From positions 1 through 63,724 of the forward strand of contig MOEI01000028.1 of the NCBI GenBank assembly GCA_001889965.1: a DNA stretch of 63,724 nt, written 5' to 3'. The stretch is from a bacterium CG10_46_32. Lineage in GTDB: Bacteria > Patescibacteriota > Patescibacteriia > UBA2169. The translations under genes were made by a program, and so were the position numbers. Position 1 is the first letter of the stretch; each line of letters starts with the position of its first letter. The notes beneath the pieces were generated by a model. It worked only from the letters and a program-made list of their open reading frames with translations, had not been told where the DNA came from and ran no database searches. This document shows positions 6,307-63,724 of this stretch, piece after piece.

Positions 6307-7257
6307 ATGAAGGTGCTTGTCACTGGAGGAGCCGGGTTTATCGGCTCCCATATCGTTGACGGTTTAGTTAGTGAGGGTCACGAAACCGTGATCCTCGATG
6401 ATTTTAGTGCAGGCAATCATGAGTTTGTTAATTCCGCGGCAAGCGTTGTGGAAGCGGATATTCGGGATACGGAAGCCGTTAATCGTGCGTTTCAAGAACA
6501 GCAACCCGAGGCAGTGTTTCATTTGGCTGCAATGGTTGACCTAAGAGAGAGTTTAAAAAATCCAGAAAAGTCATATGCAGTTAATGTTATTGGATCGCAG
6601 AATATAATTCGCGCCGCGAAAAATGTGGGCGTCAAAAAATTTATTTTTTCATCATCAGCAGCAGTGTATGGAAACAATAATAATTTGCCCATAAAAGAAT
6701 CAGAACCCATAGCGCCAACTTCTCCGTATGGTGAGCAAAAAGCAGAAATTGAAAAAGCGCTCAAAGATTCTGGCGTTCCATCAATTGTGTTGCGCTACGC
6801 AAATGTGTACGGCCCGCGGCAAGGTACGGTCGGCGAAGGAGGGGTAGTTGCAATTTTTTGCAAAAAATTGCGTGCAGGCGAACAGCTTGCTGTGTTTGGC
6901 AGCGGAGAACAAACGAGGGACTTTGTGTTTGTAGATGACGTTGCCTCCGCAAATCTTAAGGCCTTGGCATATACAGGGGCGTATGCCATCTGCAACATCT
7001 CAACCCGCATCGAAACCAGCGTAAACCACATTGCTTCCGCGCTCTTGTCAGTATCCCAAAAAAATACTACTATTTCTCACACAGAAGCGCTCCCAGAAGA
7101 AGTGCTTCGGAATAGCTTAGATTCTAGTTTTGCCCAGAAAACGCTTCATTGGGAGTCTGTAATAAGCATTGAAGAAGGGCTAGAAGCCACATGGAAGTGG
7201 TTTACAGAAAATGTCAAAGTCAAAAATTCAAATGCCAAATCAATGCCAAAATTCTAA
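6307..7257 (+). CDS. NAD-dependent epimerase, UDP-glucose 4-epimerase (GalE)-like
   Basis: MKVLVTGGAGFIGSH start preceded by GGAAGG; SSAAVYG and YGEQK (YxxxK) motifs. The ORF-track start at 6277 was trimmed to the RBS-backed ATG. Confidence 0.85.
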   Translation: MKVLVTGGAGFIGSHIVDGLVSEGHETVILDDFSAGNHEFVNSAASVVEADIRDTEAVNRAFQEQQPEAVFHLAAMVDLRESLKNPEKSYAVNVIGSQNIIRAAKNVGVKKFIFSSSAAVYGNNNNLPIKESEPIAPTSPYGEQKAEIEKALKDSGVPSIVLRYANVYGPRQGTVGEGGVVAIFCKKLRAGEQLAVFGSGEQTRDFVFVDDVASANLKALAYTGAYAICNISTRIETSVNHIASALLSVSQKNTTISHTEALPEEVLRNSLDSSFAQKTLHWESVISIEEGLEATWKWFTENVKVKNSNAKSMPKF

Positions 7258-7328
7258 TAACAAAGTTTTTAGCCTTTAAGCATGTAACATTCATTTGAGC
7301 TTTGGATTTTGACATTTAGGTTTGATTT

Positions 7329-9305: not shown

Positions 9306-9392
9306 GGCTGTTCGGGGCTATAAATTTTTTCGCTCCGAAGGGGGCTAGAGCCCATACATTCTCGCTACAAAATTTATAGCCCCTGCACACCC
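9306..9392. repeat. Copy 1 of an ~85-nt hairpin-forming intergenic repeat (GTTCGGGG...CTCCGAAGGG...CCCTGCACACC)
   Basis: Shares termini and core with 54824..54904 and 63526..63607. GGGGCTATAAATTTT pairs perfectly with AAAATTTATAGCCCC. Confidence 0.85.
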
Positions 9393-10766: not shown

Positions 10767-11881
10767 ACATAGCAATTGTAAGCGCAGTATTTCCGCCATA
10801 TCGAGGTGGTATTGGAGCCGTGGCCCAAGCCCACGCTCGTATGTTGGCATTAAAAGGACAAAACATATCAATGTTTACGCCGAATTATGGGCAGGGTGCA
10901 TATGTAGGAGATGCTTCGTATAAGATTGAATTGTTGCAGCCAAAGCTGAAATATGGAAATGCAGCTTGGGTGCCGCAGCTAGAAAGCCAATTAAAAGATT
11001 TTGATGCGGTGATTTTGCAGTATCCATTTTTTGGAGGAATGCGTGCTGTATATAATGCAAAAAAGAAGTATGGATTCAAATTGATATTGAATTACAATAT
11101 GGATGTGGTAGGTTCGGGTTTAAAAGGATTGGTATTTTGGTATGCAACAAAATTTTTTTTACCACGTATCGTCAAGATCGCGGATGTAGTGCTCGCGTCA
11201 TCCGAAGATTACGCAAGGCATTCTGATTTGGGGCGCTTGTGGTCCAATGACAAAAAGTTCCAAGTGGTGCCTATTGGTGTTGACTTAAATAAGTTCAAGC
11301 CAGATCCCTCCGCTCGCCTGCGGCTCGGTCGGGATGACAAAGGGATGGTGTTGTTTGTTGGAGGTTTGGATCGCGCGCACTATTTTAAAGGAGTTGAGTA
11401 TTTGATTAAGGCTATGCCATTGGTTTCCATGGACGCGAAATTTGTCATCGCCGGAAAAGGCGATCGTATGGAACAGTATGAAAAACAGGCTCAAAACCTT
11501 GGTGTTGCTGATCGTGTTACATTCGCAGGAGGAGTGTCAGACGAAGAGCTTGTTGCATTGTACCAGAACGCGGCAGTTACTGTGCTGCCATCTATTGATC
11601 AATCAGAGTCATTCGGCATCGTGCTCGCAGAGTCCATGGCATGTGGCACGCCAGTTATCACGTCAAACCTACCTGGCGTTAGGTCGGTGTACCAAGATGG
11701 CGTGTCCGGAATAACAATTCCAGTCCGCGACGAGAAAGCGCTTGCAAATGCAATCAATTTTATAGTAACTAATCCATCAAAACACGCAGCAATGGGAAAA
11801 TCTGCTCGCAAACTTTGCGAAACAAGGTATACTGGGGAGAGTATTGGAAATACATTACTTACACTATGCGGCGTTCAATAA
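10763..11881 (+). CDS. GT4 (GT-B fold) glycosyltransferase
   Basis: 372 aa. The C-terminal PS..ESFGIVLAESMACGTPVI motif is the E-x7-E region of GT4 enzymes. ATGA overlap with the upstream stop. Confidence 0.88.
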   Translation: MNIAIVSAVFPPYRGGIGAVAQAHARMLALKGQNISMFTPNYGQGAYVGDASYKIELLQPKLKYGNAAWVPQLESQLKDFDAVILQYPFFGGMRAVYNAKKKYGFKLILNYNMDVVGSGLKGLVFWYATKFFLPRIVKIADVVLASSEDYARHSDLGRLWSNDKKFQVVPIGVDLNKFKPDPSARLRLGRDDKGMVLFVGGLDRAHYFKGVEYLIKAMPLVSMDAKFVIAGKGDRMEQYEKQAQNLGVADRVTFAGGVSDEELVALYQNAAVTVLPSIDQSESFGIVLAESMACGTPVITSNLPGVRSVYQDGVSGITIPVRDEKALANAINFIVTNPSKHAAMGKSARKLCETRYTGESIGNTLLTLCGVQ

Positions 11882-14184
11882 TACAAACATTACTCTTGTT
11901 CGCATCAGTTGCGCTTTTGTACAGCAACTGGACCGGAAGCAAATCATTTGTTGTTGGGCTTGTTGGCCTTGCAGTATATTATGGTCTCCAAGCAATTTGT
12001 TGGGGAGTTGTTTTGGAGCGCATACTTCCATTCAATAGGGCGTGGGCATCTGTATTTGGATTTTTAGTTGGGTTCTACCTTTCCGCATTTGCTGTTGGTA
12101 TTCCAGTTGTGGTATGGAAGTATGATAGGATCGCCGTTGCATGTGCGCTACTATTTGTTGGTTTGGTGGGTATACTGTTGTCATTGTGGATGAAATCAAA
12201 TAATAGCATCATCCCAAACTCATTGCGGGATCCTTACGGAAAACAGATTCTGAAACAAGTTCAGCATGACGCCCTAAAGAAGATTTCTTCGTTTCTCGCT
12301 TTAGTGCGAGATTGGCATGTAATTGGTTTTTTTGTGTTTTCCGCCTTGTTTGCATTTTTTATTTTTCATGCCCGCACGGGAGTGTATATTATTTCCCCAT
12401 GGGCCGCGCTTTCATCATTTACGCTCATGCTTTTTTTTGCGCTTGCGTTTTTGGTGGGGTATATGGTGCTCACAAAAGGATCAATTAAGCTGGTGCTTGC
12501 GGTCATCATCGTATTTTCGTACCTTACGCATGCGTATTTGCCGGTTATCTACGAAACAGGATTTGGCGGGGACAAATGGCGCCATTTGGGAGCCGAACAA
12601 TGGCTACAAGAAGGGAATATTTATACTCCGAGCATTTGGGGAGAGGATCGCTCCACTATTCATTTCGGGCCTATTGCGGTTCCCGAGGCTTTGGTTGCAG
12701 GAAATAAAACATCATACGCAGCTCAATGGGCATCAACTATCTTTTTATCTGAATCTTTTGGGGTGAGCTTATTTTGGGTTGATTTGTTGATGGTATTTTT
12801 GCTCTGGTCGTTGTTTCTTCCACTGCTGTTATATTGGTTCGGCAGGTTGATTTTTGAAAATGAGCGCTTAGGGTTATTATTCGCATTTTTGCCGACCATT
12901 TTTTATACGTTCCAGTCCGAAGGCGCTATTACGATTCCGGTTTCGTTCGGGCATTTATTTTTCTTTTTTATTTTATTACTATGGGCGCAGTATGTTAAAG
13001 AGGGAAAACGGGCCGCATTGTATGCGGCAAGCGTATTCTCTTTGATGTTTTATTGGGGGTATATTTTGAATTTTTTCGTGTTGCTTCTTTTTGGCAGTTT
13101 GGCAATTGCATGGCGAAAATTGTTTATGGAGCGCAATCATTGGTATAAGCTTAAGCTTAAGTTTGGATTCAGCGACCGAAGGATCGCGCTCCGCGATAAA
13201 ACTATTTTTGTACTTTTGGTTTTTGGCGCGTTGTTCGCAATTCCATTTTTGGAGATATTCCAAGGACTCTCCAACTACGCCTCAGGTTCAATGTCTGTTG
13301 GAGGTGTGGTGGATGCGCTTGCAGATTCTTTCGGCAGGCTTTCTGGGTTTATCGGAATTATAGTGCCCCCTGATTTTATTGATCAGGGAAACTTTTTGTA
13401 TAACCAATCTAAAGAGTCACTCTCACGCTTGCCACTATTCTCCTACCGAATTGTTCCGTTTGTCGTTTCTATGGGCGTGTGGACTGTTATTGGCTGGGCT
13501 TGCTATCGCTTGTTCCGATACCACAAGGCGAAGCGTGTGCTGGCGCTCATTGCTGTTTTGTTTGGCGTCACTTTGGGTGCGTACTTTATTTCCTGGTCAT
13601 TTACCGAGGGTGTGCACATTTTGGCGCGCCGGCTTAATGAGACAATTGTATTTTTTATGATTTTGTTTTTAGGATGGGGGATGTGGCTATTCTTGCACGA
13701 AGACCGCATTCCCATTCCTATGCGGAAAAAGATTCTTGTTGTTGCTTTTTTGCTCGCGTTTAGCGCGACATCAACCTATGCATCCGGCCCTAAACTGCAA
13801 ATGGTAACCAGTGATGAGCTGGCGGCGGCGCGCGTCGTGTGGGCTGAACACCAACTAGATGGAGAGCCACACTGCGTTATTGCAAATACCTGGCCGTTGC
13901 TTGGGCTTGAAGCGGTATCTGGCCGTAAAATTACGGGCGGAAATTTTCCTATGTACACGGAGTATGCCCAGCCAGAGCGTGTTAAGATTTTTGAAGCATT
14001 GTCAAAATCGCCATCAGACACATGGATTACCGCGGCATTCCGCGTGACTGGCGCATCCACCTGTTACTACATGACTGAGAATAAATGGATTAATGATACC
14101 GTGCTTGGCAAGATTATTGAATTACTTGGCGAGCCACGGCGTATTGGGGATGTGCATATTTGGCGGATTGACAGGCAACTCTAA
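11866..14184 (+). CDS. Large polytopic membrane protein, candidate GT-C-type glycosyltransferase/polymerase
   Basis: ~770 aa with more than 12 predicted helices and a soluble C-terminal domain. I could not recognise a family. The start was taken at the internal ATG 11866 (the track ORF begins at 11815). Confidence 0.7.
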   Translation: MRRSIIQTLLLFASVALLYSNWTGSKSFVVGLVGLAVYYGLQAICWGVVLERILPFNRAWASVFGFLVGFYLSAFAVGIPVVVWKYDRIAVACALLFVGLVGILLSLWMKSNNSIIPNSLRDPYGKQILKQVQHDALKKISSFLALVRDWHVIGFFVFSALFAFFIFHARTGVYIISPWAALSSFTLMLFFALAFLVGYMVLTKGSIKLVLAVIIVFSYLTHAYLPVIYETGFGGDKWRHLGAEQWLQEGNIYTPSIWGEDRSTIHFGPIAVPEALVAGNKTSYAAQWASTIFLSESFGVSLFWVDLLMVFLLWSLFLPLLLYWFGRLIFENERLGLLFAFLPTIFYTFQSEGAITIPVSFGHLFFFFILLLWAQYVKEGKRAALYAASVFSLMFYWGYILNFFVLLLFGSLAIAWRKLFMERNHWYKLKLKFGFSDRRIALRDKTIFVLLVFGALFAIPFLEIFQGLSNYASGSMSVGGVVDALADSFGRLSGFIGIIVPPDFIDQGNFLYNQSKESLSRLPLFSYRIVPFVVSMGVWTVIGWACYRLFRYHKAKRVLALIAVLFGVTLGAYFISWSFTEGVHILARRLNETIVFFMILFLGWGMWLFLHEDRIPIPMRKKILVVAFLLAFSATSTYASGPKLQMVTSDELAAARVVWAEHQLDGEPHCVIANTWPLLGLEAVSGRKITGGNFPMYTEYAQPERVKIFEALSKSPSDTWITAAFRVTGASTCYYMTENKWINDTVLGKIIELLGEPRRIGDVHIWRIDRQL
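12220..12270. repeat. Short GTCAT-type palindromic repeat unit embedded in frame in the membrane-protein CDS
   Basis: TCATTGCGGG...GATTCTGAAACAAGTTCAGCATGAC. The last 25 nt match 36157..36181 at about 21/25 positions and fold as CTGAA/TTCAG. Translated as SLRDPYGKQILKQVQHD. Confidence 0.55.
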
Positions 14185-14623: not shown

Positions 14624-15679
14624 TTATAGAAGATTTTTTGGGAAGATTCCGTTTTCAAACCAAACGTTCCATCCTTTGTAATGTTTGTGTTTTTGTATTT
14701 CAGCACGCTTGTGTTTCATAGTTGCTATGCCAGCCAATCCATCAGCCATTGCTTTGGCGATGATCCAAGGCCTGTCTTTAAATATATAACCAAAGAAGAT
14801 GGTCATCCATCCGAGAATAATCCAGAGCACATTGCGGAAGAAAACCGCTGTAGGATAATTTTTGTATTGCGTCCAAATCAAATTACGGTAGGTAGTATAT
14901 ACCGCAAAATCCGAAAGCTTGCTTGTTGATGCAGAGCCCTTGTGATATACAACTGCGTCTTTATCATACCCTGCTTCAAATCCGAGCAAGTGGGCGCGGA
15001 ATCCGAGGTCAATGTCTTCGGTGTATGCAAAGTATGTTGGATCAAAATACCACTTGTCATTGCGAGGGAGGGTACTCCCGACCGTGGCAATCTTATCATC
15101 GCCATGGTTGCCTGTAGCCTTGGAATCGTGCTCTGAGGCGACGTTAGGATTGCCGCGCTCCGCTACCGCTCCGCTCGCAATGACACAGGCTTCTAATAAC
15201 CTTCTAGAGTACAGTGCGCATCCCGCAGAGGGGCAGAAGATCTTTTGCTTTTCATTCAATCGGTTGAAAGGTAAACCGCTTTTCATCATCACCACGCCGA
15301 GGTTGTCTACTTTGTCGCGATTGTTGTATTGCATCATGTGGCCGGCAATCATATCACCCTTAGCTTGCGCCATGGTAGTCAAAAAGCTCGGTTCAACTTC
15401 AGTGTCATTATTAAGGACTAGGACGGCATCGGTGGCGTCATTAGCAAGTGCGTGCCTCATGCCTATATTATTGCCCTCCGCAAAGCCTAGATTACTCTCA
15501 TTCTGAATGAGAGTAATCTTGGGAAATTCATCCATCAAAACCTTGCCGTGGCCATCTGCGTCATTATTTACAACAATGACGGAGTAGCTCGGATAGTCTA
15601 TTTTTTCAAGCGATTTTAAGCAGGCCTTGGTGTCATCAAGGTTTTTGTAGTGCAGGACAATAATTGCAATATGTGACAT
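14624..15679 (-). CDS. GT2 glycosyltransferase carrying an in-frame repeat insertion
   Basis: MSHIAIIVLHYKN, VVNNDADG and YTEDIDLGFRA motifs; paralogous to 9729..10766. The track ORF extends to a TTG at 15727; the ATG at 15679 fits the usual GT2 N-terminus. Confidence 0.85.
   Translation of the reverse strand: MSHIAIIVLHYKNLDDTKACLKSLEKIDYPSYSVIVVNNDADGHGKVLMDEFPKITLIQNESNLGFAEGNNIGMRHALANDATDAVLVLNNDTEVEPSFLTTMAQAKGDMIAGHMMQYNNRDKVDNLGVVMMKSGLPFNRLNEKQKIFCPSAGCALYSRRLLEACVIASGAVAERGNPNVASEHDSKATGNHGDDKIATVGSTLPRNDKWYFDPTYFAYTEDIDLGFRAHLLGFEAGYDKDAVVYHKGSASTSKLSDFAVYTTYRNLIWTQYKNYPTAVFFRNVLWIILGWMTIFFGYIFKDRPWIIAKAMADGLAGIATMKHKRAEIQKHKHYKGWNVWFENGIFPKNLL
15056..15184. repeat. 129-bp GTCATTGCGAGG...CTCGCAATGAC palindromic element inside the GT2 CDS
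   Basis: Same terminal inverted repeat as 16539..16626 and 20813..20930. It is exactly 43 codons, read on the minus strand as VIASGAVAERGNPNVASEHDSKATGNHGDDKIATVGSTLPRND. Confidence 0.85.
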
Positions 15680-15714
15680 ATTCATATAGGTTATTGTTAT
15701 GGTAGTATAGCTAT

Positions 15715-16536
15715 ATGAAAGATACAAGAAACATTCTATATGTCGCTCGTTCCTTTCTCTGGGGCGGGTCTGTTCTATTTCTCGCCTGGCTGTTTTTCCA
15801 GAACCTGGTGCCCACCGGGGAGTTTGTTTTACAGTACAAAAAAGGGAGCGCTATTTCGCCGATTACGGATCTGCATCCGGAACAGCGCGTGATTGATTTG
15901 GATGATGATGGCCCGAATAGCCAGCGTTTTTATGTTGATCCTGTGTACTTTGATGCAAAAGTTCCGCGCGAGTTTGATACGGTGACCGTTGATATAACAT
16001 TCCAAAATCAAGCCCAACCAATCTTGGAGCTAGGTGCACGTCGTTTGCGTGGAAGTTGGGGTTTTGTAATGAAGCCGTTGCAGAATACAATTATCGACAA
16101 CCTCGATTGGCCGTGCCAGCGGTATGATGGTGTACTGTTCTGCCAAAAGCAGGAGCGTTATACGAACCTTTCTGCATTACTGGTAAAGCCTCCTTCCGAA
16201 CCAATTTTGACGTACCACTATGCGCTTCCAGAGAATATTCAGTGGGATGTTATGAATGTAAATACTGATACAAGCGAGTATAATTATCTGGTGGCAACAT
16301 ATACGCCTCCTGAATCACTAGGAGATGATTGGTACCGAACTAGTGTTCCATTTGTATGGAGCGATTTTGAGTTGTACATCAACGAGATCAGTTTTTTGGT
16401 TTCTGCTCCGGAATTAAATAAAGGACATGGTGATATTGTGCTTAAGGATATTACTATCCTACTCAAGCGCGACCCATTGGATTGGAACGGATTTGTTGAG
16501 TACATAAAAAACCAATTGAAAAGATTAAAAACTTAG
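15715..16536 (+). CDS. Hypothetical membrane-anchored protein
   Basis: 273-aa ORF with an N-terminal TM helix. No family recognised. Divergent from the GT2 gene. Confidence 0.7.
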   Translation: MKDTRNILYVARSFLWGGSVLFLAWLFFQNLVPTGEFVLQYKKGSAISPITDLHPEQRVIDLDDDGPNSQRFYVDPVYFDAKVPREFDTVTVDITFQNQAQPILELGARRLRGSWGFVMKPLQNTIIDNLDWPCQRYDGVLFCQKQERYTNLSALLVKPPSEPILTYHYALPENIQWDVMNVNTDTSEYNYLVATYTPPESLGDDWYRTSVPFVWSDFELYINEISFLVSAPELNKGHGDIVLKDITILLKRDPLDWNGFVEYIKNQLKRLKT

Positions 16537-16538
16537 TT

Positions 16539-16626
16539 GTCATTGCGAGGGAGCGAAGCGACTGCGGCAATCTTATCAACCAGCCGCAGCTCGATGGTAA
16601 GATTGCTTCGCTACGCTCGCAATGAC
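16539..16626. repeat. 88-bp intergenic copy of the GTCATTGCGAGG...CTCGCAATGAC palindromic element
   Basis: Perfect 11-12-nt terminal inverted repeats. The internal arms GCGAAGCGACTGCGGCAATCTTA / TAAGATTGCTTCGCTACGC also pair. Confidence 0.9.
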
Positions 16627-16816
16627 AATTCTACTAAAACTCAATACCGAGCTATTCCGTGCATCCGGAGTACTTACGCTTGTGCTTTACTTTTTAGAGA
16701 CGCTGAAAGATGGGTATGTATCGTTTTTCGTTAATCCGGCTATCATGCTGGCTGTTTTTGTCGTATCCGGCATAATCTGGCTTTTTACTCCTGATTCTGG
16801 TAAAGTAGGGGTATGA
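16622..16816 (+). CDS. Possible small two-TM membrane protein
   Basis: 64-aa ORF whose stop overlaps the rmlC ATG (ATGA at 16813). Its ATG is the ATGAC terminus of the repeat. No clear SD. Confidence 0.4.
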   Translation: MTILLKLNTELFRASGVLTLVLYFLETLKDGYVSFFVNPAIMLAVFVVSGIIWLFTPDSGKVGV

Positions 16817-19738: not shown

Positions 19739-20412
19739 AGCTGCCTCTTATTACTCCTTCTCTGGTAACATACACCAAAGGAAAGCCGGTTTCGCGCGGG
19801 TATATTGATGCGCGCATCCGGGAAATTAATGCATTGGGGCTTAAAGAAATTTCTTTATTTGTGACGGGGTACGAAAAAAAAGGGCGCGACTATGTCCATG
19901 AAAAACTCAAGACCACGGGCATTGTTTCGATTCCGCACGTACATATCCGCGCAGACCAAACTGAGCACGAGGTTCGGCATTATATGGAAACATATGGTAC
20001 GCGCCGCTTTACGACACACTATGAGTATATTCCGTATTTTACAAAATTCAGTGCAGATGTGCGCGCTTGCATTGGCATAGAAAATAATAATGATTTTAAG
20101 CTTGATAAAAAATTGGATCGATTTGGCGGGCTGGTGATTGATCTCTCACATTATGTTGATGTGCGGGAACAAGGCATTGCTCGTGATATTGAACGCGCCC
20201 TCGAACGGCTGCCGGTTTTAGTGAATCACGCGAGCGCGGTGACTGCGGCGAGCGAGTCGCGCCATTTTGCCCGCAGCGTACAGCAATACGCATACCTGCG
20301 TACTATGCCAAAAAAATGTTTTAGCGAGGTGGTGAGTTTGGAGATTGGCAATACTCTTGCCGCGCAATTAAGCTTTATCCCTTTTATTAAAAAGCAACTG
20401 GCACGCGTATGA
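19735..20412 (+). CDS. Hypothetical protein embedded in the rml operon (possible TIM-barrel fold)
   Basis: 225 aa from the ATG that overlaps the rmlB stop (ATGA); its own stop overlaps the rmlD ATG. IGIENNN and IDLSHY faintly recall xylose-isomerase-like/AP-endonuclease-2 barrels. Confidence 0.65.
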   Translation: MKLPLITPSLVTYTKGKPVSRGYIDARIREINALGLKEISLFVTGYEKKGRDYVHEKLKTTGIVSIPHVHIRADQTEHEVRHYMETYGTRRFTTHYEYIPYFTKFSADVRACIGIENNNDFKLDKKLDRFGGLVIDLSHYVDVREQGIARDIERALERLPVLVNHASAVTAASESRHFARSVQQYAYLRTMPKKCFSEVVSLEIGNTLAAQLSFIPFIKKQLARV

Positions 20413-21338
20413 AAACACTTATCATAGGCGCAAAAGGCATGCTCGGCCAGGAGCTTGCAAAAGCATTTACAGAATTCAATCCCACCGTATGGGATGTGAG
20501 CGATATTGATATTACCGACCAATCCCAGGTCAACGAGAAAATGAGCATGCTCGCGCCGGAGCTCATCATCAACGCGGCAGCATACACCAATGTGGACGCA
20601 TGCGAAGAGAACGAGGAGCTTGCCACAAAAGTTAATGGTACTGCAGTAGGGTATCTTGCAAGAGTTGCATCAAACCTTGGCGCGACCTTGGTGCACTATT
20701 CAACGGATTACGTGTTTGATGGAACTCAGCAGGAGGGGTATACAGAACTTGATACGCCGCATCCAATTAATGCCTATGGGCGGTCAAAACTTGCAGGAGA
20801 GCAGGATATACTGTCATTGCGAGGGAGTGAGCAGTACCCTGCGAACGACCGAAGCAATCTTAACGACGAGAATAGGCCTTTTGGTGACGATAAGGTTGCT
20901 TCGTTGGCGAGTACGCCTCCTCGCAATGACAGATGGTACATCATCCGCACCGCATGGCTCTATGGGCACGCAGGGAAAAATTTTGTGGAGACCATGCTTT
21001 CAATGGCTCAAGCGGGTGAGCCATTGAAAGTAGTAGATGACCAGATCGGCTCGCCAACGTACGCGCCGGATTTGGCACAGGCAACTTTTGATCTCGTAAA
21101 AAGTGGTAAACCAGCAGGCATCTATCACCGCACCAACAGCGAAACAATAAGCTGGTACGGATTTGCCAAGGAAATTTTTGAGGTGTATGGTAAGGACGTT
21201 GATTTAGTGCCGTGCGCAACTATGGAATATCCGCGCCCAGCAAAGCGCCCTACGTTTTCGACCTTAGTATCAACAAAGCTTCCTTCGCTTCGTTCGTGGC
21301 AAGAGGCGCTCCGAGAGTACGCGTCATTTCATCATTAA
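20409..21338 (+). CDS. rmlD: dTDP-4-dehydrorhamnose reductase with ~40-aa repeat-derived insertion
   Basis: IIGAKGMLG, INAAAYTNVD, STDYVFDG, YGRSKLAGE, IIRTAWLYG and DQIGSPTY are RmlD motifs. Confidence 0.9.
   Translation: MKTLIIGAKGMLGQELAKAFTEFNPTVWDVSDIDITDQSQVNEKMSMLAPELIINAAAYTNVDACEENEELATKVNGTAVGYLARVASNLGATLVHYSTDYVFDGTQQEGYTELDTPHPINAYGRSKLAGEQDILSLRGSEQYPANDRSNLNDENRPFGDDKVASLASTPPRNDRWYIIRTAWLYGHAGKNFVETMLSMAQAGEPLKVVDDQIGSPTYAPDLAQATFDLVKSGKPAGIYHRTNSETISWYGFAKEIFEVYGKDVDLVPCATMEYPRPAKRPTFSTLVSTKLPSLRSWQEALREYASFHH
20813..20930. repeat. 118-bp GTCATTGCGAGG...CCTCGCAATGAC palindromic element inside rmlD
   Basis: With flanking bases, CTGTCATTGCGAGG / CCTCGCAATGACAG form a 14-bp terminal inverted repeat. 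The internal GAAGCAATCTTA / TAAGGTTGCTTC arms also pair. The rmlD ORF is uninterrupted. Confidence 0.9.
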
Positions 21339-21342
21339 ACTA

Positions 21343-21403
21343 GATCCCTCGACTCGCGAGGAAGCCTGCCCCGAGTATTCCCGAGGGGCTCGCTCGGGAT
21401 GAC
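21343..21403. repeat. Related GTCAT-type repeat fragment (…CTCGCTCGGGATGAC)
   Basis: GATCCCTCGACTCGCGAGG...GGGGCTCGCTCGGGATGAC between rmlD and rmlA. It has the same ...CGCTCG-NNN-ATGAC ending as the other elements. A shorter relative is at 17696..17721 (…TTCGCTCAGGGTGAC). Confidence 0.45.
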
Positions 21404-21414
21404 AGCTATTTTTT

Positions 21415-29268: not shown

Positions 29269-31737
29269 ATGTCATTTACCTACCTTGTCCTTGGTATTAG
29301 TATTTTGCTTCTTATTCCGATCACTTTTATTGTGAGGATGTTTACGCGCAAAATGTATAATCGTTTTAATCCATTTGAAATGGTTACCTTGCGCGTGCTT
29401 TTGCCCAAAGAGTCGCTTGAAGTAGAAGGAGTAAACCAGCAAAAAGAGGTTCGCCAACTTATTGCGCCCATTGAATCGTTTATGTCGAACCTCGCTGGGT
29501 TGCGCGCAGAGCGAGGGTGGAATGCATTTTGGTTTGGGAGGCGCGACCATTTTGCATTTGAAATTGTTGCGGACGATGGTGTTATTTCTTTTTATATTAC
29601 GGTTCCGCAGGATCTGAGGCAGTTTGTGGAGCAACAGATTCAATCTCAATCTCCGGATGCGTATATTGAAGAGCGGGAAGATTATAATATTTTTAGTCCC
29701 CAAAGCGCGATTGCCGGGCTTTCTCTTGGATTTAAAAAATCGTACTATTTTCCCATCCAAACGTATCAGGAAATGGAATTTGATCCGTTAAACGGCCTTA
29801 CAAATTCTCTTTCTAAATTTCGTGATCCAGAGAATGGGGGAGCGGCAATTCAGTTTGTGGTGCGTAGCGCCCATCCGAAGTGGCATGCCGCAGCTTCCAG
29901 GCTTGCCCGCGAAGTCCGGACTGGAAAAAAACTTTCAGATGCCGTAAAAATTGTGAGTGGCAATCCATTTAATGTTGCGCTCCGCGCGGTGATGTCCGCA
30001 GGAACAAAAAAATCAGAAGAACGTGAGCGATTAAATCGCCAACAGCAGACGCTTTCTCAGTTCGACGAAGAAGCGCTTTCTCGCATACAGGGAAAAAGCG
30101 CAAAGAGCGCTTTTGAGGTAAATATCCGTATTGTAGTGGCCGCACAAAATGAATCAATCGCAAACTCAAGCCTTTCCGCGATTGCGGATTCATTCAGCCA
30201 GTATGGGGGCTATGAGTATTCTAATGGATTTATTCGAAATAAGCCGCGCAACCTTACTGCATTTTTAAATGATTTTATTTATCGCAATTTTAAGGAGCGC
30301 GGTCAACTTATTTTAAACACCGTGGAAATGGCATCGGTGTTCCATTTTCCCTTGCCTACAGCCGAGACCCCGAATATTTTGTGGCTTTCCTCAAAACAAG
30401 CTGCTGCCCCAGTGAATATGCCGACTCAAGGGCTTGTGCTTGGGCATAATGTGTATCGCGGAGACGATACCGTGGTGCGCATTAAGGAGGGTGATAGAAG
30501 GCGGCATGCATATATCATTGGAAAATCAGGCTCTGGAAAATCCGTGCTTATCGCGAATATGGCAAAGCAGGATATTGAGGCAGGCCACGGAGTATGCGTT
30601 ATTGATCCGCATGGTGACTTAGTTGATACCGTGCTTTCGTATGTTCCAGAGAATCGCATGAAGGATGTTATCTACTTTGATCCAAGCGACACCGATCGGC
30701 CCATGGGGCTTAATATGCTTGAGTACAAGGATGATTCGCAGAAGGATTTCGTGGTGCAGGACATGATTCGTATTTTCGAGAAATTGTTTCCACCTGAGGT
30801 TATCGGCCCTATGTTTGAGCACAATATGCGTAACGTAATGTTGACGTTGATGGCAGACAAAGAACATCCAGGCACTATTGTGGATATTCCACGCATGTTT
30901 ACGGATCCAGAATTCCAAAAGTACAAGGTTTCAAAGCTGGTGGATCCAAACGTTCGTTCGTTTTGGGAGCAGGAAATGGCAAAGACCAGTGATTTTCATA
31001 AGTCTGAAATGCTTGGGTACCTTATTTCAAAAGTTGGTAGGTTCGTGGAAAACGAAATGCTCCGCAACATCATCGGCCAGCCAACAAGTGCATTTGATTT
31101 TAGGGATGTAATGGATAACAAAAAAATTCTGCTTATCAATCTCGCAAAAGGGAAAACCGGAGAGGTTAATAGTTCGTTGCTCGGTTTAATTATTGTGTCA
31201 AAATTACAGATGGCTGCTATGACGCGGGCTGAACTGCCAGAGAGCGAGCGCCATGATTTTTATTTGTATATCGACGAGTTCCAGAATTTTGTTACCGATT
31301 CAATTGCCACTATTCTTTCTGAGGCGCGCAAATATCGGCTTGATCTTATTATTTCGCACCAGTACGTTGGCCAGCTTGTTGATTCAAAAGGAAACACTAA
31401 TATCCGTGATGCGGTGTTCGGGAACGTAGGTACTATTATTTCTTTTAAGATAGGCGTTGAGGATGCGGAAATGATCGCCAAGGAGTTTGCTCCCGTATTT
31501 AATGAGTATGATGTGATTAATATTGATAAGTATCAGGCATACATCAAGCTGTTGATTGACAATGCTTCGGCAAAGCCGTTCCAGATATCAACCTATCCTC
31601 CTGAACCTGGAAACTCAGCCCTTGCTACGGCCATCAAAGAATATGCGCGCAACACCTATGGAGTGAGCAGAGCAGATGTTGAAGCTAACATTGTGGAGAG
31701 CTTCCAATTAGAAAAAAAAGCAGAAGCATCAGAGTAG
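29269..31737 (+). CDS. VirD4/TraG/TraD-like (type IV coupling protein-like, FtsK/HerA superfamily) membrane-anchored P-loop ATPase
   Basis: 822 aa with an N-terminal TM helix. Walker A IIGKSGSGKSV followed by CVIDPHGDL, Walker B FYLYIDEFQNF, then RKYRLDLIISHQY. Confidence 0.8.
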   Translation: MSFTYLVLGISILLLIPITFIVRMFTRKMYNRFNPFEMVTLRVLLPKESLEVEGVNQQKEVRQLIAPIESFMSNLAGLRAERGWNAFWFGRRDHFAFEIVADDGVISFYITVPQDLRQFVEQQIQSQSPDAYIEEREDYNIFSPQSAIAGLSLGFKKSYYFPIQTYQEMEFDPLNGLTNSLSKFRDPENGGAAIQFVVRSAHPKWHAAASRLAREVRTGKKLSDAVKIVSGNPFNVALRAVMSAGTKKSEERERLNRQQQTLSQFDEEALSRIQGKSAKSAFEVNIRIVVAAQNESIANSSLSAIADSFSQYGGYEYSNGFIRNKPRNLTAFLNDFIYRNFKERGQLILNTVEMASVFHFPLPTAETPNILWLSSKQAAAPVNMPTQGLVLGHNVYRGDDTVVRIKEGDRRRHAYIIGKSGSGKSVLIANMAKQDIEAGHGVCVIDPHGDLVDTVLSYVPENRMKDVIYFDPSDTDRPMGLNMLEYKDDSQKDFVVQDMIRIFEKLFPPEVIGPMFEHNMRNVMLTLMADKEHPGTIVDIPRMFTDPEFQKYKVSKLVDPNVRSFWEQEMAKTSDFHKSEMLGYLISKVGRFVENEMLRNIIGQPTSAFDFRDVMDNKKILLINLAKGKTGEVNSSLLGLIIVSKLQMAAMTRAELPESERHDFYLYIDEFQNFVTDSIATILSEARKYRLDLIISHQYVGQLVDSKGNTNIRDAVFGNVGTIISFKIGVEDAEMIAKEFAPVFNEYDVINIDKYQAYIKLLIDNASAKPFQISTYPPEPGNSALATAIKEYARNTYGVSRADVEANIVESFQLEKKAEASE

Positions 31738-36087: not shown

Positions 36088-36181
36088 GTCATCCTGAATC
36101 CCGAAACCAGTTCGTGACAGGCCTTGTTTCAGGATCGACCTATAAAATTATATGAAGATGCTGAAATAAATTCAGCATGAC
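36088..36181. repeat. Two adjacent GTCAT-type palindromic repeat units upstream of rarA
   Basis: GTCATCCTGAATCCCGAAACC...GTTTCAGGATCGAC (36088..36139) and GATGCTGAAATAAATTCAGCATGAC (36157..36181). Confidence 0.7.
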
Positions 36182-53131: not shown

Positions 53132-54821
53132 TTGGAATATTTCGGAGGTAATTGTTGCAACACTAATAGCAGAGTATCCGGATATGCATCCGGTTATTTT
53201 GCAGTTGCTCGCGAATCGCGGTATAACATCCAAGAGTGAGATAGGCGCATTTTTAAATCCACGCTACGAAGATTTATGTGATCCATTTTTATTCCGGGAT
53301 ATGCAAAAAGCCGTTGACCGCGTCGCCTGCGCGCGCGAAAAAGGAGAAACAGTTTTTGTGTACGGGGATTATGATGCAGACGGAGTAACATCTTCTTTGA
53401 TTATGGTGGAAACATTGCGTGCATGTGGTATTAAAACGGTGGGGATATATATTCCGCACCGCGAAAAAGAAGGTTACGGCTTACATACCGGATCTATTGA
53501 TTATATTGCAGAGCAAGGCGCAACATTAGTTATCGTGGTGGATTCAGGAACTTCTTCTGTGTCTGAAGTAGCATATGCGGTTGAAAAAGGCTTAGATGTT
53601 ATTGTCTGCGATCATCACGAGGAACCTAAAGAACTCCCGCAGGGGCTTTCTGCATTTTTGAATCCGCATGTACGCGGTGAAACCTACCCATTCAAAAATC
53701 TTGCCGCGTGCGGAGTAGTATTTAAGTTTAGTCAGGCATTGTGGAAATCTTTTAATCTTCCTAGTGGACAAGAAAAGTGGTTTTTGGATTTAGTTGCTAT
53801 CGGCACAGTTGCGGACATGATGGATCTCGTAGGGGAAAACCGAATATTTGTCGCTTTTGGGCTAACGGTACTTAATAAAACAAAACGCCAAGGCCTGCGT
53901 TCTTTAATTTCCGAAATGCAGATAAAATCAAAAACACTTGGAACGTACGAAATTGGATTTATGATTGCACCGCGTTTAAATGCAGCAGGCAGGCTTGATC
54001 ATGCCAATACCGCCTACACATTACTAGAAACTCAGGATATGGCCGTTGCCTCTGAATTTGCACAATCATTAAACCAGACGAACGTTGCGCGCCAGTCCGA
54101 AACGGTACGTATTTTTAATGAAGCAAAAGAACAAGTGAGCTCCCAAGTTTCAAAAAACAAAGTGTTGGTTGCGGTGGGCGCTGATTGGCCTGTTGGTATC
54201 GTTGGCTTGGTGTCCGGCAGAATTACGGAAAAATTTTGGCGCCCGTCTTTGGTTATCACTACATCAGAAAAAGGTTTAGTCGGCTCTGGCAGAAGTATTC
54301 CTGGTTTTAATATTACAGACGCGCTTTCGCAGGCAAGCGAGTATTTGGAGCGGTTCGGCGGACACGAGGGAGCATGCGGCTTCACTATAAAATCTGAATC
54401 AATGCTTCAGGATTTTATTCAAAAACTCAACCAAATCGCAGACGCAACACTTTCACAAGAAGCGCTTGTAAAACATCTTACCATTGATATGGAGCTAGGG
54501 CTTGAGCAAATTGATTGGGAGCTTGTATCAGCATTGGATACGTTTGGGCCGTATGGCATAGGAAATCCATCGCCTGTGTTTGCTTCTTTTGGGCTTCGTG
54601 TTGCTGATGTGTTTTTAATGGGCGCGGAAAAACAACACATGCGTATCAAGCTAGAGCAACATAAAGCAACTCATCAAGCTGTTCTGTTTGGATTTAGCAA
54701 GCACATCGAGGGCACGCTGAATCAGGGCGATCTCATTGATATGGCATACAGCATCGACATCAATGAGTACCATGGCCGCCGCGATATTCAGCTGAAGGTT
54801 GTTGCTATTAAGAAACTATGA
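53124..54821 (+). CDS. recJ: Single-stranded-DNA-specific exonuclease RecJ
   Basis: DHH-family motifs VYGDYDADGVTS, VVDSG, CDHH and GGHEGACG. Confidence 0.93.
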   Translation: MRNWNISEVIVATLIAEYPDMHPVILQLLANRGITSKSEIGAFLNPRYEDLCDPFLFRDMQKAVDRVACAREKGETVFVYGDYDADGVTSSLIMVETLRACGIKTVGIYIPHREKEGYGLHTGSIDYIAEQGATLVIVVDSGTSSVSEVAYAVEKGLDVIVCDHHEEPKELPQGLSAFLNPHVRGETYPFKNLAACGVVFKFSQALWKSFNLPSGQEKWFLDLVAIGTVADMMDLVGENRIFVAFGLTVLNKTKRQGLRSLISEMQIKSKTLGTYEIGFMIAPRLNAAGRLDHANTAYTLLETQDMAVASEFAQSLNQTNVARQSETVRIFNEAKEQVSSQVSKNKVLVAVGADWPVGIVGLVSGRITEKFWRPSLVITTSEKGLVGSGRSIPGFNITDALSQASEYLERFGGHEGACGFTIKSESMLQDFIQKLNQIADATLSQEALVKHLTIDMELGLEQIDWELVSALDTFGPYGIGNPSPVFASFGLRVADVFLMGAEKQHMRIKLEQHKATHQAVLFGFSKHIEGTLNQGDLIDMAYSIDINEYHGRRDIQLKVVAIKKL

Positions 54822-54823
54822 TA

Positions 54824-54904
54824 GGTGTTCGGGGTGTGCATTTTTCGACTCCGAAGGGATCATAGCTCATCATTCTCATCTCAAAATGCACACCCTGCAC
54901 ACCC
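54824..54904. repeat. Copy 2 of the ~85-nt hairpin-forming repeat
   Basis: GGTGTTCGGGG...CTCCGAAGGG...CATCATTCTCATC...CCCTGCACACCC. The inner stem GGGTGTGCATTTT / AAAATGCACACCC differs in sequence from copy 1 but still pairs. Confidence 0.85.
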
Positions 54905-54918
54905 TAAACCCAAAAAAC

Positions 54919-55320
54919 ATGAAGCTAACCATACAAACAGACGGCGGAGCTCGAGGAAACCCAGGTCCATCCGGAATCGGGGTAGTCATCACGGATGAGA
55001 AGCGTACTACCATTAAAGAAATTTCTGAATACATTGGCAAGGCAACCAACAATCAAGCGGAATACATTGCGCTTATTCGAGGCTTAGAAGAAGCAAAAAA
55101 ACTCGGCGCTTTTGAAGTGAGTATTGTTATGGATAGTGAGCTCATTATTAAACAGCTTAAAGGGGAATACAAAGTACGGGATGCAAAACTTGCTGTGTTG
55201 TTTGTGAAAGCATGGAATATGTTGCAGAGCTTTTCGTCTTACTCCGTCAAACACGTCCTGCGCGCAAAAAATAAGCGGGCAGATGAGCTGGTAAATGAGG
55301 CAATTGACCAAAAAATATAA
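54919..55320 (+). CDS. rnhA: Ribonuclease HI
   Basis: MKLTIQTDGGARGNPGPSGIGVVI, TNNQAEYIALIRGLE and ADELVNEA are RNase H motifs. The track ORF start at 54799 lies inside the repeat. Confidence 0.9.
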   Translation: MKLTIQTDGGARGNPGPSGIGVVITDEKRTTIKEISEYIGKATNNQAEYIALIRGLEEAKKLGAFEVSIVMDSELIIKQLKGEYKVRDAKLAVLFVKAWNMLQSFSSYSVKHVLRAKNKRADELVNEAIDQKI

Positions 55321-55377: not shown

Positions 55378-55751
55378 GGCAGGTAAGCTAGACAATCGCC
55401 TTGAGCTTGTCTCAAGGAGGAAAGTCCGAACACCTCCGTCGAAAGGCGGAAAAAAGGGTAGTCGGTAACGCCGACCGGTATACGAATCGTACGAAGGGTC
55501 TCTCGAGAACTTTCGTGCTTTTCTAAGCCAGGACAGGTGCAACAGAAAGTATACCGCCGATGGCCGCAAGGCACAGGCAAGGTTGAAATCGTGGGGTAAG
55601 AGCCCACGCGTTCGCGTGGTGACATGCGAAAAGAGGTAAACCCTACCCGGTGAAAGGGCGCATAAATGGTAGCCCGTTAGATTTTGCAAGCAATTGCAAA
55701 CCTAGATAGATGATTGTCCTCGACAAAATTCGGCTTATCGGCTTGCCTGTC
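55378..55751 (+). ncRNA. rnpB: RNase P RNA, bacterial type A
   Basis: Conserved blocks GGAGGAAAGTCCGAACAC (P4 5' strand), GCAACAGAAAGTATACCGCC, GTGGGGTAAGAGCCCAC and CGACAAAATTCGGCTTATCG (P4 3' strand). P1 pairs GGCAGGTAAGC with GCTTGCCTGTC. Confidence 0.92.
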
Positions 55752-55773
55752 GATTAGAGATATTCATAAAACA

Positions 55774-63525: not shown

Positions 63526-63607
63526 GGTGTTCGGGGGTATACATTTTTTCACTCCGAAGGGGGGCTTCGTCCATACATTTTCGCTAGGAAATGGCCCCCT
63601 GCACACC
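63526..63607. repeat. Copy 3 of the ~85-nt hairpin-forming repeat
   Basis: GGTGTTCGGGGG...CACTCCGAAGGGGGG...CCATACATTTTCGCTAG...CCCCCTGCACACC. It starts 7 nt after the DUF4012 stop and ends 34 nt before the IS end. Confidence 0.8.
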
Positions 63608-63641: not shown

Positions 63642-63724
63642 CTGTTTTCTAGTCAATAGCTTGTAATCACTTCCAGTGGTGTTTTCATGTTAAGCCCCAT
63701 GTGCGGTCTCTCAGTATTGTAGTA
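63642..63724 (-). mobile_element. Second copy of the same IS terminus, inverted (transposase 3' end on the minus strand)
   Basis: Exact reverse complement of 17..99. The minus-strand frame 63653..63724 reads YYNTERPHMGLNMKTPLEVITSY-stop. Confidence 0.75.

Follow-up and report, generated by a model that had tools for sequence, protein, structure and literature searches.

The 63,724-nucleotide (nt) stretch of contig MOEI01000028.1 that we analysed, here called the window, comes from the Patescibacteria genome CG10_46_32 (assembly GCA_001889965.1) and carries an rmlD gene for dTDP-4-dehydrorhamnose reductase. Its neighbours are rmlC-like, rmlB and rmlA genes, an arrangement with synteny in orthologous loci, and the window also holds chromosomal genes such as those for L9, CTP synthase, DnaX, RecJ and RNase P RNA. 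Wholly inside the uninterrupted rmlD open reading frame (ORF) lies a 118-nt palindromic repeat, GTCATTGCGAGGGAG...CCTCCTCGCAATGAC (Table 1). Together with its flanking bases it has a perfect 14-bp terminal inverted repeat, in which CTGTCATTGCGAGG at 20811-20824 pairs with 20919-20932. A preliminary description of the window had pointed out the element, its position in the ORF and its 14-bp termini, all of which we recovered. The element is real but not unprecedented: its class of bacterial palindromic repeats is already known and very widespread.

The protein encoded by the host gene matches Pfam RmlD_sub_bind at 1.2e-89, with the match split into two stretches around the insert, and RmlD chains of the Protein Data Bank (PDB) with an E value of 1.8e-62. 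The RmlD motifs GxxGxxG, STDYVFDG and YGRSK/catalytic YxxxK are all kept. The inserted peptide, LSLRGSEQYPANDRSNLNDENRPFGDDKVASLASTPPRNDRW, sits between YGRSKLAGE and YIIRTAWLYG. It had been put at about 40 extra residues in a loop that has about ten in homologues, and the alignment agrees: from YG(R)SKxxGE to YxIRT there are 45 amino acids (aa) here vs a baseline of 10-11 aa in 120 homologues. When the protein is aligned to PDB entry 1vl0, query residue 137 falls on chain residue 151 and query residue 173 on residue 152, leaving the insert without a counterpart. In an AlphaFold2 model computed with 92 homologues (mean confidence score, pLDDT, 92.3) the enzyme core reaches 96-99, and residues ~137-175, between helix 122-136 and strand 176-181, have a pLDDT of ~50 and no secondary structure. 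The insert is thus predicted to add ~38 residues as a disordered surface loop and to leave the enzyme core intact. In-silico tryptic peptides that fall inside the insert or span its junctions include GSEQYPANDR, SNLNDENRPFGDDK and VASLASTPPR. The identical 309-aa RmlD is called on 11 contigs, and the insert is therefore no assembly accident.

The hairpin formed by the rmlD element has a predicted energy of -56 kcal/mol as RNA (z -6.8 vs shuffles) and of -33.6 kcal/mol as DNA (z -6.9). Two further copies with the same termini had been reported, one intergenic and one within a second gene, and both are present (Table 1); all three copies form long hairpins, with z values of -5.5 to -6.9 against shuffles. 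The 12-mer GTCATTGCGAGG occurs four times exactly and twice with one mismatch in the window, always as inverted pairs 88-129 nt apart (15056/15184, 16539/16626 and 20813/20930), and the chance expectation for the exact 12-mer on both strands of the window is 0.008. An alignment of the three copies covers their termini and an inner inverted box, CGGCAATCTTATCA...GATAAGATTGCC. All six arm ends read TGTC-AT..., and each arm runs ATTGC...GCAAT (GCAAC in one), a perfect 5-bp AT-first stem that closes an interior (12-37 nt among arms of this subfamily) and is followed by CTT or CCT. The G+C content of the three elements is 53-60% vs 44% for the window, which was counted as foreign composition. The flanks of the window copies show no direct target-site duplication. 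The rmlD hairpin was not flagged by a terminator scan and has no T-run after it, and no Rfam family matched the elements, either at the gathering threshold or at E values up to 10.

The second genic copy is read in frame by a gene for a family-2 glycosyltransferase (GT2), where it yields the peptide VIASGAVAERGNP...TVGSTLPRND; given the 351-aa called product P0121, the true start of this gene is probably near 15679. The third copy does lie between genes, as had been described, and it is in contact with both of them. It begins 2 nt past the TAG stop of ORF 15715-16536, and the next gene, a conserved membrane ORF of 64 aa (16622-16816), takes its ATG-ACA start from the terminal CAATGACA of the repeat. 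Orthologues of this ORF at loci L083 and L087 can be aligned from LKLNTELF onward, and their starts differ. The overlapping ORF 16537-16734 (65 aa, MSLRGSEATAAIL...ARNDN) is very likely spurious read-through of the repeat.

Table 1. Features of the window, and states of the loop in orthologous rmlD genes
Feature	Position	Strand	Description
rmlD (dTDP-4-dehydrorhamnose reductase)	20409..21338	+	intact 309-aa ORF, hosts the element, no stop
REP dimer in rmlD	20813..20930		two TGTC-tagged arms, head-to-head around a spacer; RmlD residues ~135-174
Second REP dimer, same subfamily	15056..15184		129 nt, 43 codons, in frame in GT2 gene on minus strand
GT2-family glycosyltransferase ORF	14624..15727	-	Pfam Glycos_transf_2, Glyco_tranf_2_3; homologue alignment
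Third REP dimer	16539..16626		88 nt, occupies the spacer between two genes
CGTC-tagged REP pair, other subfamily	36088..36181		intergenic, head-to-head; stems ATCCTGAA, ATGCTGAA; CGTC at both outer ends
Single CGTC-tagged REP unit	12247..12270	-	cgtc ATGCTGAA cttgt TTCAGAAT; 8-bp stem with one mismatch, 5-nt loop
rmlD loop, window			element of 120 nt with T/A; family, codon and frame shared with P0018, P0019, P0017
rmlD loop, P0018, P0019, P0017			element of 66, 87, 87 nt with T/A; TGTCATTGCG...CGCAATGACA
rmlD loop, P0015			33 nt, KAIQSSVLKNW; no palindrome
rmlD loop, P0010			different palindrome, GTCATTCTGAACGAAGCGAAG...CGCTCAGGATGAC
rmlD loop, P0003			hairpin of C/G runs
rmlD loop, P0006, P0020, P0023 and others			single unit ATGCTGAAACAAGTTCAGCATGAC(G), read (I/M)LKQVQ(H/D)D

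The rmlD copy is entered as SLRG and the GT2 copy as VIAS, and a matching difference in length brings both out as PRND. Entry is open in each of the three frames (VIA, SLR and HCE); on exit through CTCGCAATGAC, one frame is blocked by TGA, and those ending ...LAMT and ...PRND are open. Including the flanking T/A, the four orthologous rmlD copies measure 120, 66, 87 and 87 nt, all multiples of 3 and all in the SLR...PRND frame, in line with the earlier proposal that the length of the element, and no fixed peptide module, is what keeps the frame. Elsewhere, 19 of 126 copies listed by the genome scan described below are flanked on both sides by 60 or more open codons in frame, and every one of these exits as LAMT or RND. 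Part of the 19 putative genic copies are probably spurious ORFs in G+C-rich genomes. Removal in the manner of an intein or an intron was considered and rejected, as the element resembles neither; the strict maintenance of frame and stop codons in five genic copies argues for translation. We take the insert to be translated and the RmlD that carries it to be still active.

The termini of the element are found far outside this genome. A pattern scan for GTCATTGCGAG-N60-90-CTCGCAATGAC, with one genome per species, returned the termini together with the inner box GAAGCAATC from at least 120 genome loci in many phyla. The loci listed come from Alpha- and Gammaproteobacteria (many Bradyrhizobium; Rickettsiales, Coxiellaceae and Legionellales), Bacteroidota, Desulfobacterota, Planctomycetota, Chloroflexota, Firmicutes, Ignavibacteriota, Margulisiibacteriota and Patescibacteria, and 111 viral contigs in IMG/VR carry the element as well. 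The listed copies have in common the outer box and the inner box GAAGCAATCC...GGATTGCTTC, with a variable spacer, and every one is an inverted pair with its tags outward. Of the 126 listed copies, 86 have C and 34 have T directly 5' of GTCAT, and 93 have G and 29 have A directly 3' of ATGAC, which defines a CGTC/TGTC tag. The commonest of the cross-phylum arms is CGTC-ATTGCGAGCGAAGCGAAGCAAT-CCAG, whose GCGAAGC we take to be the classic, very stable DNA mini-hairpin; it would fit a single-strand DNA intermediate. Arms from other phyla mostly end GCAAT-CCA(G), and those from Bacteroidota and the candidate phyla radiation (CPR) end CTC or CTT. A profile built from 227 arms of other phyla matched exactly the six window arms and nothing else, with E values of 2e-7 to 2e-4: 20813-20860 (+) and 20931-20896 (-) in the rmlD copy (E ~2e-5), both arms of the GT2 copy (1.6e-5 and 6e-5) and both of the intergenic copy (1.8e-7 and 2e-4). 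A full-text literature search for sequence strings of the element returned unrelated primers only, and a search for CPR bacteria with REP or palindromic inserts found nothing relevant.

Orthologous loci, obtained by exact protein look-up, were used to examine the history of the insertion. (A related-locus search with an RmlD alignment, which relies on universal motifs, gave among the matches listed only distant RmlD genes of 36-43% identity.) The syntenic order is rmlC, HIT, PfkB, rmlB, a hypothetical gene, rmlD, rmlA, PEGA, EPSP-synthase family and CtpB. Three orthologues, P0018, P0019 and P0017, hold the element at the codon and in the frame of the window copy, A-I-L|S-L-R...R-N-D/G|x-L-K/N. 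The window and P0017 have a near-identical right arm, TTGCTTCGTYGGCGAGTACGCCTYCTCGCAATG, and that of P0018 is close to it. These similar arms at one codon and in one frame indicate that the copies share ancestry, despite host proteins that are only 63-65% identical. Because diverged syntenic orthologues hold a homologous copy at that codon, the rmlD insertion is neither recent nor specific to this genome.

Other orthologues have the same loop empty or filled differently. The preliminary description had asked for rmlD genes that lack the insert, and P0015 is one, with a short loop and no palindrome, while P0010, P0003 and a group that includes P0006, P0020 and P0023 carry repeats of other kinds (Table 1). 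In a neighbour-joining tree for which the loop was masked, the various insert types fall among empty rmlD orthologues. At the GT2 site, LLEx|...|(Y)FDP, the orthologues P0145, P0153 and P0161 are empty and others carry unrelated repeat-type peptides. The intergenic copy is absent from the orthologous loci: the L083 spacer lacks it, and neither L083 nor L084 has it upstream of rmlC. The scatter of insert types, the empty GT2 orthologues and the missing intergenic copy mean that these sites are hot spots where repeats turn over, rather than the scene of a one-off event.

Further variation was noted at these and neighbouring positions. At L087, 915-1010, the spacer orthologous to that of the intergenic copy holds several short AAATGTCAAA/TGACAAATGTCA motifs instead. 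Other repeat-like inserts occur elsewhere in RmlD, namely LPAEASAQAG in P0013 and SALGGSASGGN and SAQGGSALGGN in P0016 and P0018; P0003 ends in a C-terminal LDSRFRGNDN that is CGTC-1/RPE-6-like, and several GT2 orthologues have PPL/PPP...GG-type inserts. Repeat-derived peptide inserts seem, from these alignments, to be common in the clade. The DNA of loci L211 (P0006) and L212 (P0008) is ~70% identical until ~45 nt beyond the rmlD loop (nt ~489) and then ~100% identical for >3 kb downstream, and their upstream genes differ (NUDIX vs rmlB). This switch is either a recombination junction by the repeat hot spot or a chimeric contig.

The closest known system is the CGTC-tagged superfamily of repetitive extragenic palindromic (REP) sequences, families CGTC-1 to CGTC-4 (Di Nocera, De Gregorio and Rocco 2013, BMC Genomics 14:522, PMC3733652). 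As described there, the units have an unpaired terminal CGTC tag, often TGTC (a CCTC variant is accepted), AT-first stems of 8-9 bp, a 4-5-nt loop and a 3-nt tail that is mostly CCA. They occur mainly as head-to-head dimers with 20-100-nt spacers, which may fold as one hairpin. Most lie just 3' of ORFs and are probably transcribed, no dedicated transposase is reported in that account, and its authors leave de novo formation possible (PMC3733652). Neisseria dRS3 is assigned to CGTC-1, as is RPE-6 of Rickettsia conorii, whose RPE-4 is CGTC-4 (PMC3733652). The supplementary table of the same paper lists in-frame intragenic dimers of 20-40 aa, for example SFPRKRES...DSRFRGND and VIPAKAGI...IPAFAGMT. 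Our element agrees with these descriptions in its tag, AT-first stem, head-to-head arrangement, site after a stop codon and in-frame intragenic copies. A short tail follows its stem, which is CCA in most cross-phylum copies and CTT or CCT in the window copies. Bradyrhizobium, Micavibrio, Rickettsia and Coxiella are hosts in the published description and among the loci listed here (PMC3733652). It differs in that its LAMT/ARND-type peptides (SLRG/VIAS/HCE...) do not appear in the published intragenic list, and Patescibacteria are not among the five phyla for which that paper reports CGTC REPs. On the published text and table descriptions we provisionally file the element as an additional CGTC subfamily, ATTGCGAG...GCAAT, in a new host lineage.

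Two other units of the CGTC type are present in the window (Table 1). The pair at 36088..36181, whose right unit (36158-36181) pairs perfectly over 8 bp around a loop of 5 nt, lies directly upstream of a gene for an MgsA-like AAA+ protein and gives a DNA fold z of -4.1. The single unit at 12247..12270 is in frame in a 789-aa membrane-protein ORF (11815-14184, no Pfam hit), where it is read ILKQVQHD, and its type also fills the rmlD loop in P0006, P0020, P0023 and others. Taken alone this unit is statistically indistinguishable from chance, shuffles having averaged 3.9 such units. At 21345-21405, 7 nt past the rmlD stop, a sequence ends ...CTCGCTCGGGATGACA and reads TGTC-ATCCCGAG... on the other strand; its likeness to a degenerate TGTC-tagged unit is one of appearance, with a fold z of -0.66 vs shuffles, and it was not counted.

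Rickettsia palindromic elements (RPEs) were reportedly described by Ogata et al. in 2000 and 2002, and RPE-1 is longer (~150 bp) and not CGTC-tagged. NCBIfam holds domain models of RPEs. The insert peptides of the three window copies gave no NCBIfam match at E values up to 10 and none in Pfam, searches in which short peptides limit sensitivity. According to a review, RPEs are in-frame palindromes in unrelated housekeeping genes, and the loop residues that they add are believed not to disturb the fold (PMC10969869). Our element is likewise a palindromic repeat in frame in genes, fold-compatible by model (rmlD) and by alignment (GT2), and the peptide logic of RPE-4/RPE-6 as published, SFPRKRES...DSRFRGND, resembles SLRGSE...PPRND here (PMC3733652). 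It differs from RPEs in stem sequence, host lineage and the lack of a peptide-model match, and would not be a member of any named RPE family as those models define them. The earlier comparison with RPEs as repetitive or mobile DNA thus holds for repetition and in-frame carriage; mobility is a point that we infer, and no named RPE family applies.

REPINs are doublets of GTAG-tagged REPs mobilised by a Y1 HUH transposase (RAYT) and are reportedly vertically inherited and lineage-specific. Like them, our element consists of two inverted REPs and a spacer, forms a hairpin of ~100 nt, has an unpaired outer tetranucleotide and lacks a target duplication. Unlike them it has a TGTC/CGTC tag rather than GTAG, has no RAYT/Y1_Tnp among the window ORFs, and is common to many phyla and to viral contigs. 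Miniature inverted-repeat transposable elements (such as Correia, Nezha and ERIC) are also short, non-autonomous and bounded by terminal inverted repeats, with some in-frame ORF fusions (PMC10969869). The element departs from them in that it has neither a target-site duplication nor an insertion sequence (IS) sharing its ends, and in that the entire element is palindromic.

The comparisons show what the repeat is and how it is built, that it is carried in frame, that diverged syntenic orthologues hold a homologous copy at the same codon, that other orthologues have other CGTC-type REPs or none there, and that the insert is predicted to be disordered. We consider it likely that this head-to-head, TGTC-tagged REP dimer of the CGTC superfamily is carried in a permissive loop of RmlD. 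The dimer is a repeat at the level of DNA, most likely selfish or neutral. It lies in the stretch that follows the catalytic YxxxK helix and precedes the next beta-strand, and would be transcribed and translated along with rmlD. It would survive there because its length keeps the frame, the frame used is free of stops, and the ~38 residues are disordered and leave the core intact. Spread could proceed through a single-stranded hairpin intermediate handled by some enzyme, with insertion directly 3' of an existing NGTC, and the 'tag' would then be at least partly target. Empty sites bear on this last step. At the tag position the empty rmlD sites of P0015 and P0008 read CAA-TCG-TCT, the empty GT2 site of P0161 reads ACA-GTC-GGC, with the GTC valine codon kept in filled and empty alleles, and the empty spacer of L083 reads TACTGTCAG. 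IS200/IS605 elements use a tetranucleotide target, which for IS608 is TTAC. By analogy with these elements, the NGTC at empty sites fits insertion 3' of that motif, a hint at most. A bolder version, in which a phylum-spanning single-strand DNA enzyme, as yet unknown, mobilises CGTC REPs 3' of NGTC and loops serve as landing pads that can be used again, with one REP family taking the place of another, we regard as unlikely.

Several observations weigh against a selfish REP inserted into a permissive loop. With ~34 aa, the net gain in rmlD differs from the length of the element, and the event was therefore no clean insertion into the sequence of today's 'empty' alleles; ~5 host residues have been lost from the loop, which means that its history is no simple insertion. 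Direct target-site duplications are absent from the 126 listed copies, whose flanks are often complementary and prolong the palindrome, and transposition is therefore not demonstrated. Pfam found no transposase among the ~58 window ORFs, in 64 kb of genome covered, and the ORFs between paired copies at L102, L103, L109 and L117 are ordinary metabolic and envelope genes with no transposase. Compared with the CGTC families as published, the arms have a 5-bp AT-first stem and a long interior of 18-37 nt, often with GCGAAGC or another mini-hairpin, and the window copies end CTT, not CCA (PMC3733652). The neighbour-joining tree is a crude one with no support values, and the NGTC argument is a hint drawn from three loci and a rough probability estimate. 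Translation of the insert, and the activity of the enzyme that bears it, are points that we infer.

Some of these observations would be expected if copies arose, or were overwritten, at the site itself through gene conversion or template switching, in a loop whose codons GCN-ATH-CAR/CTG ...GTC are already REP-end-like. Such an origin would account for the lack of a target duplication and of a transposase and for net length changes that do not equal the element. It would also fit P0010, where the element codons GTC-ATT-CTG (V-I-L) replace host A-I-Q/L, and de novo formation is left possible in the published account of CGTC REPs (PMC3733652). The same 11-nt termini and inner box, however, turn up in many phyla and on viral contigs, in contexts unrelated to one another, which is hard to explain without copying from an existing element, and the three window copies lie at non-homologous sites. 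We therefore judge purely local formation quite unlikely.

A role for the hairpin as nucleic acid in the rml operon, in mRNA stability, processing or ribosome transit, or in DNA recombination or supercoiling, with the peptide as a by-product, seems improbable to us. The predicted RNA is indeed very stable (-56 kcal/mol, z -6.8), and orthologous copies keep the outer stem and inner box while the interior varies. Most REPs are reported to lie 3' of ORFs and to be probably transcribed (PMC3733652), the intergenic copy starts 2 nt past a stop codon, and in one orthologue pair DNA identity switches from ~70% to ~100% at ~45 nt from the site. Yet many close orthologues have no hairpin or a different one, which means that no conserved regulatory role is required for the operon, and there is no T-run, terminator call or Rfam family.

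The possibility that the peptide is adaptive in RmlD and GT2, for example as a flexible docking or linker segment under protein selection, we hold to be very improbable. The right-arm peptides of three diverged orthologues are similar (ASLASTPPRND, ASSASTPSRNG and AASAGTPPRND), both genic copies sit in glycosylation enzymes of one gene cluster, and homologous copies in hosts of 63-65% identity imply persistence through speciation. Conservation of the DNA palindrome, however, fully accounts for the peptide similarity, the left half and the length vary freely among orthologues, unrelated repeat families or nothing occupy the same site elsewhere, and the insert is predicted to be disordered and its genic copies enter in different frames. 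That rmlD is a decaying pseudogene, an alternative raised with the first description, or that the insert is an assembly artefact, has a negligible probability: an 83-nt perfect inverted repeat at the contig ends is at least one assembly oddity, but the ORF is uninterrupted with its catalytic motifs kept, the same product occurs on 11 contigs, independent assemblies of related organisms hold a homologous in-frame copy, and the core is modelled confidently.

Several other features of the window were recorded. A second, unrelated repeat family has three intergenic copies (9309-9383, 54831-54904 and 63528-63592) with the consensus GGGG(C/T)(A/G)T..ATTTTTT.(A/G)CTCCGAAGGGG, each able to form a 13-15-bp hairpin, and one copy lies just 5' of the RNase P RNA gene (55380-55753). 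A AAATGTCAAAG...TTTGACATTT pair, similar to the short motifs of the L087 spacer, is found at 7209-7317. The window ends, 17-99 and 63642-63724, are an 83-nt perfect inverted repeat of each other, which may have arisen by fold-back during assembly or may be genuine and mark the limits of the contig. Genes are almost all on the + strand, and amid housekeeping genes there are a TrwB/TraG-like coupling-protein ATPase of 822 aa (29269-31734) and a small RNase H/RVT_3 protein (54799-55317).

Three aspects of the element are new here: a CPR (Patescibacteria) host for a CGTC-type repeat; syntenic rmlD and GT2 orthologues in which the same codon holds different CGTC-type repeats or none; and examined empty sites that carry NGTC at the tag position, a hint at insertion 3' of the motif. 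In-frame palindromes, seen so far as a curiosity of Rickettsia and a few lineages, also occur in core cell-envelope sugar enzymes of Patescibacteria. One 11-nt terminus and inner box are common to bacteria from Bradyrhizobium through the CPR and to viral contigs, and a single protein loop has repeatedly been occupied by different repeat subfamilies in orthologues. For annotation, inserts of 20-45 aa, low in complexity and disordered, should be expected in CPR proteins, with signatures such as SLRG...PRND, VIAS...LAMT, ILKQVQDD and VILSEAKRSEES...AQDD, and small spurious ORFs such as 16537-16734 arise from the same repeats. To our knowledge, the field has lacked a mobilising enzyme since RPEs were described in 2000. 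Pairs of filled and empty alleles, which are clear in Patescibacteria for several CGTC subfamilies, could define the insertion rule and guide the search for that enzyme. If loops do act as landing pads, comparison of REP-bearing with REP-free CPR genomes, with their small gene sets, could reveal it.

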